This document shows, piece after piece, positions 48,433-48,719 of a stretch of 64,000 bases of DNA. Position numbers and translations under genes: made by a program. Location: positions 10,919-74,918 of the forward strand of contig HF993083.1 in NCBI GenBank assembly GCA_000433475.1, written 5' to 3'. How positions within the stretch are numbered: the first letter of the stretch is position 1; each line of letters begins with the position of its first letter. The notes under the pieces were generated by a model that saw nothing but the letters and a program-made list of their open reading frames with translations, was not told the origin of the DNA and did no database searches. This DNA comes from Mycoplasma sp. CAG:956. Lineage in GTDB: Bacteria > Bacillota_I > Bacilli_A > RF39 > UBA660.

Positions 48433-48719
48433 AGATACATTTGATTGTTAGATGTTTTGACCTCGGTCCATATTTTAATTTTTTAGAAATGGAAGGAGGT
48501 TGGTCCTAGAATGAAGGAAAAGGATGGAGTATTTGGTTGCTCTTATTGTTATATTGGTCTTAATCGACAAAATAACAAATTCCAACAAAAGGGATTAGTT
48601 TTTAACTTAAAAAAGGGGGAAACTAAAAAACATCTACTCAAGCTTATGAATAGATGTTTTTCACACTTTAATTATTAATGGGCTGAGAAACATCTAACAT
48701 GCAAAAATCAAATGTATCT
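48433..48719 (+). ncRNA. Candidate structured RNA / tightly folded small mRNA
   Basis: Three stacked long-range helices: 48433..48446 with 48706..48719 (14 bp), 48447..48457 with 48688..48698 (11 bp), 48462..48470 with 48679..48687 (9 bp, two G-U pairs valid only for a + strand transcript). T run after 48719. Confidence 0.45.
48511..48678 (+). CDS. 55-aa basic CxxC...CxxH miniprotein ORF enclosed by the fold
   Basis: ggaaggagg RBS 11 nt upstream; MKEKDGVFGCSYCYIGLNRQNNKFQQKGLVFNLKKGETKKHLLKLMNRCFSHFNY; below the size cutoff of the supplied ORF track. Confidence 0.35.
   Translation: MKEKDGVFGCSYCYIGLNRQNNKFQQKGLVFNLKKGETKKHLLKLMNRCFSHFNY

Follow-up and report, generated by a model that had tools for sequence, protein, structure and literature searches.

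A structured element downstream of yunB in uncultured gut Bacilli is a candidate type I toxin–antitoxin module

Organization of the locus downstream of yunB

The element analysed here lies at 48433–48719 of a 64,000-nucleotide (nt) stretch of Mycoplasma sp. CAG:956 (contig HF993083.1, positions 10,919 to 74,918 of the forward strand), hereafter the window, whose numbering is used throughout. The window has a G+C content of 27% and uses the standard genetic code; genetic code 4 (TGA as Trp), raised by the Tenericutes label of relatives, was rejected, as TGA terminates 7 of 37 long open reading frames (ORFs). A sequence search finds the element once in the window, preceded by a gene for a YunB-like sporulation protein and followed by a 281-codon ORF (48936–49781; 278 amino acids (aa) as called in related contigs), itself uncharacterized, and then by a YutD-like gene. 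Comparison of homologous copies suggests a chromosomal type I toxin–antitoxin module, of a family not described before, in which the element serves as the toxin transcript; we assign this reading a probability of roughly 0.7. The features of the locus are as follows, SD denoting Shine-Dalgarno sequences.

48433–48725, + strand: predicted full-length toxin mRNA, ~293 nt, whose 5' arm (48433–48470) pairs with a 3' arm (48679–48719), followed by a U run (48720–48725)
48524–48598, + strand: 24-codon ORF, candidate type I toxin gene, encoding MEYLVALIVILVLIDKITNSNKRD
48511–48678, + strand: 55-codon ORF, overlapping the 24-codon ORF in another frame; protein not conserved
48491–48499, + strand: SD1, GGAAGGAGG, 11 nt before the start of the 55-codon ORF and 24 nt before the AUG of the candidate toxin
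48514–48523, + strand: SD2, AAGGAAAAGG, proximal ribosome-binding site of the 24-codon ORF
48525–48584, + strand: start-codon hairpin, in which UGGA (48525–48528) and AUUUG (48531–48535) pair with CAAAUUCCA (48576–48584)
48625–48661, both strands: internal hairpin, preceded by an A run and followed by a U run; predicted antisense terminator
48787–48760, − strand: antisense promoter, TTGCAA, 16 nt, TG-n-TATACT (near-consensus extended −10; promoter scan)
48752–48622, − strand: predicted cis-antisense RNA, ~130 nt, with a 5' stem-loop (48750–48733), a middle stem-loop and a terminator (48661–48625)
48397–48425, + strand: putative toxin promoter, −35-like TAGATT (48397–48402), 17-nt spacer, extended −10 TGGTACCAT (48417–48425)
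48782–48811, + strand: candidate promoter-like site, TTGCAA-18-TATAAT, 10 of 12 consensus matches

The conserved reading frame encodes a small hydrophobic peptide

The preliminary description of this element, made from the window alone, took the 55-codon ORF as its gene and proposed a zinc knuckle of the form CxxC...CxxH. Our comparison of homologues does not bear this out. Several of them have R and Y in place of C10 and C13, and the other two ligands, C49 and H52, are frameshifted away in many, the C-termini differing among homologues through such frameshifts. The ATG is absent from units L024c2 and L026c2, and an in-frame stop interrupts the frame in L026c1. The ratio of non-synonymous to synonymous polymorphism (pN/pS) is 0.83 in the 55-codon frame and 0.58 in a second frame, as compared with 0.36 in the 24-codon frame. 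The 55-aa product has no match in Pfam or NCBIfam, and with its Cys and His ligands unconserved it does not belong with the L33-like zinc-ribbon or zinc-knuckle proteins. These sequence comparisons largely refute the zinc-knuckle reading, and the 55-codon ORF is at most a non-conserved leader frame.

By comparison, the 24-codon ORF has exactly the same length in 32 of 32 distinct complete units, the set that all unit statistics below cover, and these encode 19 distinct peptides. A dense cluster of seven substitutions in L016 looks non-synonymous in the 55-codon frame, whereas in the 24-codon frame each is synonymous or V-to-I. An SD2 motif (AAGGA, AAGGAG, GGAGA or AGGGA) stands 4–7 nt before the conserved start in all units, and the GGAGG of SD1 is retained in 30 of 32. 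SD1 has two possible partners, CCUC in the 5' arm and UCCU at 48506–48509; in the consensus fold described below its AGGA is paired with UCCU, and in the single-sequence minimum free energy fold it is paired with GACCUC, as had been noted before. SD1 may act as a standby site, as part of a leader ORF or as a structural switch. Judged by these patterns of substitution, the conserved gene of the element is the 24-codon ORF and not the 55-codon ORF.

The encoded peptide has a hydrophobic core at residues 3–14, followed by a polar, charged tail (DKITNSNKRD). I, V, L, M or A account for 12 of its first 15 residues, and its maximum 11-residue hydropathy is 3.92. A small ORF (~20–60 aa) with a transmembrane-like stretch and a polar or charged C-terminus characterizes type I toxins (PMC2887945, PMC8594479), and the peptide has the properties used by Fozo et al. 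2010 in their operational search for such toxins (PMC2887945). Four variants of the 24-aa peptide revealed no relative in Pfam or NCBIfam, a PDB profile search gave none either, and a full-text literature search for the peptide returned no paper. The preliminary description had seen that a 5'–3' fold-back points to a type I toxin transcript, and this part stands; it then dropped the idea because the 55-codon peptide that it read is basic and non-hydrophobic. That dismissal used the wrong frame, and the hydrophobic 24-codon ORF fits the toxin class.

The + strand RNA is closed by a covarying 5'–3' helix

The three stacked helices proposed for the ends of the element are found at A, 48433–48446/48706–48719; B, 48447–48457/48688–48698; and C, 48462–48470/48679–48687, the last including two G-U pairs. 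A T run follows directly after 48719, corresponding to the U run at 48720–48725, and is present in 31 of 32 units. The outer arms form a 24-nt inverted repeat at the element ends that is 88% complementary, and the internal hairpin at ~48625–48661 uses the word TAGATGTTTT of the outer helix again. A 306-nt stretch folds at −90 kcal/mol, as compared with −55.8 ± 4.8 for shuffled sequences (z −7.2; 0 of 100 as good), and the exact 294-nt stretch gives z −8.0. The minus strand of the region also folds beyond its shuffles (z −7.2).

A consensus fold was computed with RNAalifold from 15 distinct homologous copies (alignment A2). It retains the three outer helices, an AGGA/UCCU hairpin at the GGAGG, the start-codon hairpin, a small internal hairpin and the hairpin at 48625–48661. 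Among these copies, 97.2% of pair cells are standard pairs, as compared with 33–45% when the 3' partners are slid. Eight pairs are changed on both sides, and the number of cells changed on both sides is 27, compared with 9.5 ± 3.0 in shuffles, none of 500 of which reaches 27. Helix C occurs as CUCAG/CUGAG, as CUCGG/CUGAG with a G-U pair and as CUCGG/CCGAG, and helix B shows the series A-U, G-U, G-C. In the internal hairpin (helix 7), four pairs have changed on both sides and 98.2% of cells are paired.

The start-codon hairpin (consensus helix 5) is paired in 99.3% of cells and joins the AUG to codons 18–21 of the 24-codon ORF; its columns 111/152 are G-C in seven sequences, A-U in seven and G-U in one. 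The predicted RNA of ~293 nt, which we place between 48433 and 48725 on sequence grounds, would be a short, highly structured mRNA (150–400 nt) whose AUG lies in a conserved hairpin. The outer helices carry ~25 G-U or U-G cells, which on the minus strand would be A-C mismatches; the closing helix therefore belongs to a + strand RNA, in agreement with the earlier argument for RNA structure over a transposon end. The helix had also been described as precisely enclosing the 55-codon ORF. The helix is real, whereas the enclosure is a coincidence, as that ORF is not the conserved one.

Several words recur within the RNA, UAGAUGUUU and AAACAUCUA twice each and GGUCC three times, and they co-vary between paralogue types; alternative pairings among them suggest a folding pathway. 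The internal hairpin possibly provides a second, bidirectional stop for the mRNA. A 13-nt perfect complement between 48700–48712 (TGCAAAAATCAAA) and 48774–48786 (TTTGATTTTTGCA) was considered as an anti-terminator and rejected, as G48777 varies without compensation. This complement ties the 3' arm to the spacer and −35 of the antisense promoter; to judge from the variation, it is probably not a conserved pairing. Rfam searches of the whole window at gathering scores, and of 48300–48950 at E values up to 10, gave nothing relevant to the element. Sub-threshold minus-strand matches to RsaE, OhsC and LhrC, at 19–21 bits against cut-offs of 50–110, are chance.

A conserved convergent promoter predicts an antisense RNA

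Downstream of the element, a minus-strand promoter, which was absent from the preliminary description, is directed back into it. Its spacing is exact in 31 of 32 units, and it is the best-conserved block of the unit, with a mean identity of 0.95 between diverged units, as compared with 0.87–0.88 for the arms, 0.75 for the ORF and 0.40–0.52 for the linkers. The positions of promoter and terminator predict an antisense RNA that starts at ~48752 and ends at the internal hairpin. Consistent with this prediction, the computed fold of a 136-nt minus-strand stretch (−38.7 kcal/mol, z −5.4) comprises the 5' and middle stem-loops together with the terminator, and the internal hairpin reads on this strand as a 17-bp stem followed by UUUUUU. 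The region of the 5' stem-loop has an identity of 0.89 between units; in L029c1 the base of this stem-loop has changed to a pair that would be A-C in a plus-strand RNA and is G-U in a minus-strand RNA. The predicted antisense RNA is complementary to ~104 nt of the mRNA 3' end (48622–48725), comprising the hairpin and the 3' arm. As the arms of the unit are inverted repeats, the antisense RNA resembles the mRNA 5' end and does not complement it.

On the plus strand, the 37-nt block before the element (48396–48432) has a mean identity of 0.86 between diverged units, and the extended −10 TGGTACCAT is present in 23 of 32. This putative weak promoter would start the mRNA at ~48432–48434, at the first base of helix A. 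A GTACC-N9-GGTAC hairpin with a T-rich stretch, flagged as weakly terminator-like, lies just after yunB at 48404–48422 and overlaps the putative toxin promoter; its stem is not maintained by compensatory changes in other units. The candidate promoter-like site at 48782–48811 shares the palindromic −35 hexamer TTGCAA with the antisense promoter. It is directed at the next unit in arrays and, in the window, at the downstream ORF 48936–49781. It is kept in most units and is degenerate in L029c1, where the minus-strand site persists.

The unit is repeated in tandem at a single locus

The repeating entity is a unit of ~497 nt, consisting of the element flanked by ~70 nt on its upstream side and ~140 nt on its downstream side. 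In sister species (YunB 84–93% identical), it forms a head-to-tail array of two, three or four copies after yunB, a tandem repetition that was likewise absent from the preliminary description, and in L028 (YunB 70% identical) the site is empty. Across related genomes, 0, 1, 2, 3 or 4 units are present after yunB, the tandem duplication and patchy intergenic presence expected of a type I locus.

All copies found in metagenomes, reference genomes and protein-cluster contigs sit after yunB. The 55-residue ORF has 20 homologous protein clusters (P0001–P0020), every one from gut metagenomes; their annotated "proteins" of 34–73 residues are all calls of the non-conserved frame, and all contigs of the eight clusters that were looked up carry the ORF at one and the same position after yunB. 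A scan for YunB in one genome per species led to a clade of uncultured Bacilli represented by metagenome-assembled genomes, the majority from gut samples of the Hadza. Of 22 matches to a conserved 20-mer in a metagenome scan, four were true, and all four lay at the yunB locus. The element has no blastn match in plasmid and phage collections, and viral contigs scanned with the 20-mer and with peptide patterns gave a single chance 20-mer match and no relatives. Searches with nhmmer and a peptide hidden Markov model in the window and in 34 distant yunB loci found no further copies.

Some copies carry or adjoin mobile-element sequences. A remnant of an IS3-family insertion sequence (IS) lies within or beside the internal hairpin both in L025 (4982–5516) and in the second L029 unit (5460–5534). 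It contains orfA (HTH_Tnp_1) only, has the ends GATATGAACCCCGTTTC, and is oppositely oriented in these two distinct species; the L025 copy additionally takes the place of sequence up to the 3' arm. The shared site suggests either an IS preference for the internal hairpin or selection for knock-out of the module. Directly after the unit in L025 (5865–7167) stands an IS30-like gene broken into two frames (HTH_38 domain), and in L091 (618–2015) a gene for a 465-aa UPF0236-family protein separates the unit from its usual downstream gene.

Alleles within the species of the window are mosaics of paralogue types known from sister species, which is why the element varies more than its flanks. Among the single-copy-locus strain alleles, L017, L016 and L021 are mosaic relative to the L026/L027 units over the window equivalent of 48524–48719; in its 3' half L017 is identical to the second-unit type of L026/L027, as is L016 in the ORF region. 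The mosaic allele of L017 acquires an A-C mismatch in helix B. These patterns point to recombination or gene conversion between paralogue types. By eye, 48766–48825 resembles the 5' arm region 48436–48490 (TTTGATT..., then CCT-GGGTCCAT..., then TTTAATTT-AGAAA), which may reflect an ancient partial duplication inside the unit.

Elsewhere in the window, the sole features found with Rfam and ARAGORN are a ribosomal protein L21 leader (12413–12484; RF00559, 39.7 bits) and a tRNA-Arg(CCT) (35528–35604).

Comparison with known type I systems

T1TAdb defines type I systems by an mRNA of 150–400 nt, a peptide of 20–60 aa and an antisense RNA of 60–200 nt, and in Gram-positive families the antisense RNA lies on the 3' side with partial overlap (PMC8594479). 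The sizes and layout of the unit fit this definition, its ~130-nt antisense RNA being predicted from the conserved promoter and terminator. Like bsrG/SR4, bsrE/SR5 and txpA/RatA of Bacillus subtilis, the unit has a Firmicutes/Bacilli host, a small hydrophobic peptide with a charged tail and, by prediction, a toxin mRNA of ~290 nt with a convergent 100–200-nt antisense RNA under a strong antitoxin promoter. The Bacillus pairs have 3' overlaps of 114–123 nt and RNase III cleavage, and SR4 brings about refolding at the ribosome-binding site (PMC8464778); the predicted overlap of ~104 nt (48622–48725) in the unit is of the ~100–120 nt type found in TxpA/RatA and BsrE-G-H. Sequence membership in these families was not found in Pfam, NCBIfam or Rfam. 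The peptide is also shorter, at 24 aa compared with 30–59, and the predicted antisense RNA of the unit halts 24 nt short of the ORF, whereas those of the Bacillus families overlap it (PMC8594479). Furthermore, the antisense target in the unit is one strand of a long 5'–3' closing helix, and the unit lies by yunB, in contrast to the prophage or skin-element location of the Bacillus families.

The closing helix recalls hok/sok of plasmid R1 with its chromosomal homologues and aapA/IsoA of Helicobacter pylori, whose full-length mRNAs combine a 5'–3' long-distance interaction with local start-hiding hairpins (PMC6733600). Shared with these systems are also alternative pairings of repeated words (here UAGAUGUUU/AAACAUCUA and GGUCC), multi-copy loci and IS insertions, which in E. 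coli have been reported in the hok copies of the chromosome (PMC6733600). The overlapping upstream 55-codon frame recalls mok, yet it is not conserved in the unit. In the Gram-negative systems, the antisense RNA falls inside the bounds of the mRNA and targets the 5' translation-initiation region once the 3' end has been trimmed, whereas the one predicted for the unit lies at the 3' end; and the long-distance helix of the unit does not itself contain an anti-SD of the toxin ORF. Sequence homology to hok/sok or aapA/IsoA was not found in Rfam or Pfam. Hok-type peptides have ~50 aa and form the Pfam family HOK_GEF; the Sok RNA is located at the 5' leader, and translation depends on the mok leader frame. 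The unit falls outside Hok/Sok by the absence of a Pfam match, the 3' position of its antisense promoter and the unconserved upstream frame, which leaves the 5'–3' fold-back as the sole principle in common. It falls outside AapA/IsoA as well, with its antisense RNA 3' of the ORF and its 3' arm paired with the 5' arm and not with SD2.

With Fst/RNAII (par of pAD1) and SprA1/SprA1as, the unit shares a Gram-positive setting and, by prediction, convergent RNAs whose overlap covers the 3' end of the mRNA and leaves out the ORF (PMC8594479), and its shared hairpin, between an A run and a U run, could likewise be a bidirectional terminator. These two systems rely on functional pairing between 5' regions outside the overlap; such complementarity was not found in the unit. 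The complementary 5' repeats DRa/DRb, by which RNA II of Fst/RNAII pairs with the translation-initiation region of RNA I, have no counterpart, the arms of the unit being inverted and not direct repeats, and its peptide has no Fst-type match in Pfam. The ldr/rdl, ibs/sib and zor/orz loci of E. coli resemble the unit in that a single intergenic region contains whole ~0.5-kb units in tandem, every one of them with a tiny hydrophobic ORF; their copy number is strain-dependent, and the intergenic region is short where units are absent (PMC2887945). They differ in phylum and in antisense position, and show no sequence similarity. Taken as a whole, the copy variation, the empty site, the IS insertions and the mosaic alleles resemble the population behaviour typical of type I loci. 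Compared by sequence, the unit fits the general type I definition while lying outside the membership of any described family.

Proposed mechanism

The ORF, the RNA structure, the promoter motif and the repeat behaviour are established by sequence comparison, and from them we infer where the transcripts begin and end, that the peptide is toxic and how it is repressed. In the proposed model, the weak extended −10 promoter would produce an mRNA from ~48433, so that its first and last ~40 nt pair. This 5'–3' lock, together with the U run, would terminate the mRNA; it would also shield both ends from exonucleases and hold the message in a compact fold that buries the start codon. On the model of hok and aapA (PMC6733600), the lock and the local hairpins would silence the message during and after transcription. 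The strong convergent promoter would meanwhile yield the ~130-nt antisense RNA, terminating at the internal hairpin, which would form a duplex of ~100 bp with the 3' arm and hairpin of the mRNA. The duplex would tag the mRNA for double-strand-specific cleavage, the role of RNase III in Bacillus systems, and may refold the 5' part of the mRNA, so that the peptide is not produced. Loss of the antisense RNA, or trimming of the 3' arm, would allow the mRNA to open and be translated, and the 24-residue peptide would insert into the membrane and halt growth.

A more specific form of this control is conceivable, which we put forward as a speculative and rather doubtful proposal. Since the 3' arm is complementary both to the mRNA 5' arm and to the antisense RNA, the latter contains a sequence almost identical to the 5' arm. 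An antitoxin that works by displacing a strand of the closing helix would compete with the 5' arm for the 3' arm; in one state the message would be locked and resistant to exonucleases, in the other open and subject to cleavage or refolding. Ribosome entry might be coupled to this switch through the upstream GGAGG and the overlapping 55-codon frame, acting as a standby or mok-like leader.

Several observations weigh against a type I module. The support for it is entirely in silico. The hydrophobic stretch of the peptide is no longer than 12–15 residues, and the peptide has no detectable relative among known toxins in the Pfam, NCBIfam and PDB searches; nor does any Rfam type I antitoxin family match. 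The module was found solely at one chromosomal locus within one narrow clade. The toxin promoter falls below the threshold of a consensus promoter scan, and its start site is a guess. The internal hairpin could stop most + strand transcripts ahead of the 3' arm. The predicted antisense RNA overlaps neither the 24-codon ORF nor its ribosome-binding site, and duplex folding of the antisense RNA with the mRNA 5' part gave no significant trans pairing when compared with shuffles (z −0.1 to −0.8); repression would therefore have to act through cleavage or refolding.

Alternative explanations

The doubt that remains about the type I reading lies mostly in the chance that the element encodes a non-toxic membrane micro-protein under antisense control. 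Here the 24-codon ORF would be, for example, a sporulation or envelope gene next to yunB, with a structured mRNA whose expression the cis-antisense RNA tunes and does not silence. The ORF, the structure and the antisense promoter do not in themselves prove toxicity, the locus invariably adjoins the sporulation gene yunB, and some predicted type I toxins proved not toxic on testing (PMC2887945). The variation between genomes speaks the other way: 0–4 copies and tandem amplification fit a selfish or dispensable toxin module better, the site is empty in a sister species and IS insertions have recurred, and the antisense promoter is better conserved than the ORF. On balance, we consider a non-toxic product improbable, while counting it as a serious competitor.

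A purely non-coding structured RNA, in which all ORFs are incidental, would account for the strong structure and its covariation. It leaves unexplained that the 24-codon frame is exact in 32 of 32 units despite nucleotide divergence of up to 25–30%, that substitutions are biased to synonymous or conservative changes and that the Shine-Dalgarno sequence is kept at the right spacing, and we hold it to be very unlikely.

Still less credible is an mRNA for the 55-residue basic zinc-knuckle protein: its ORF is open in the window and in most copies and has a strong GGAGG 11 nt upstream, against which stand the lost ligands and start codons, the frameshifted C-termini, the internal stop, the pN/pS of 0.83 and the lack of any family match described above. 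Equally remote is a DNA-level element such as a miniature inverted-repeat transposable element or another miniature transposon with the arms as its terminal inverted repeats, suggested by the inverted repeat and by copy numbers that differ between species: the 64-kb window holds a single copy, every copy found lies after yunB and none turned up in collections of viruses, plasmids or phages; what repeats head to tail is the entire 497-nt block with its flanks and not the 287-nt element; and the arm pairing is maintained via G-U pairs that fail on the other strand. No target-site duplication is present at the element, and the dispersed copies with such duplications that, according to the preliminary description, would indicate a transposon were not found.

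Implications

Type I toxin–antitoxin modules are almost never annotated, their peptides being under the length limits of gene callers. Here the callers took the wrong 55-codon frame in 20 protein clusters, and the 24-codon ORF is too short for calling; the database "protein" at the yunB locus is probably not a protein, which is a warning for small-protein catalogues. On the favoured reading, the locus adds a type I family from an uncultured, low-GC lineage of gut Bacilli. Its unit would unite two principles usually described in different phyla, namely a 5'–3' long-distance lock and a 3'-overlapping antisense RNA. The copies also offer a natural variant set for studying how mRNA folding controls a toxin, with 19 peptides, compensatory helix changes, 0–4 copies per locus and IS-disrupted copies. 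Strand displacement on the closing helix, if true, would be a control logic undescribed both for the Gram-positive families with 3' overlap and for the Gram-negative families with long-distance interactions.

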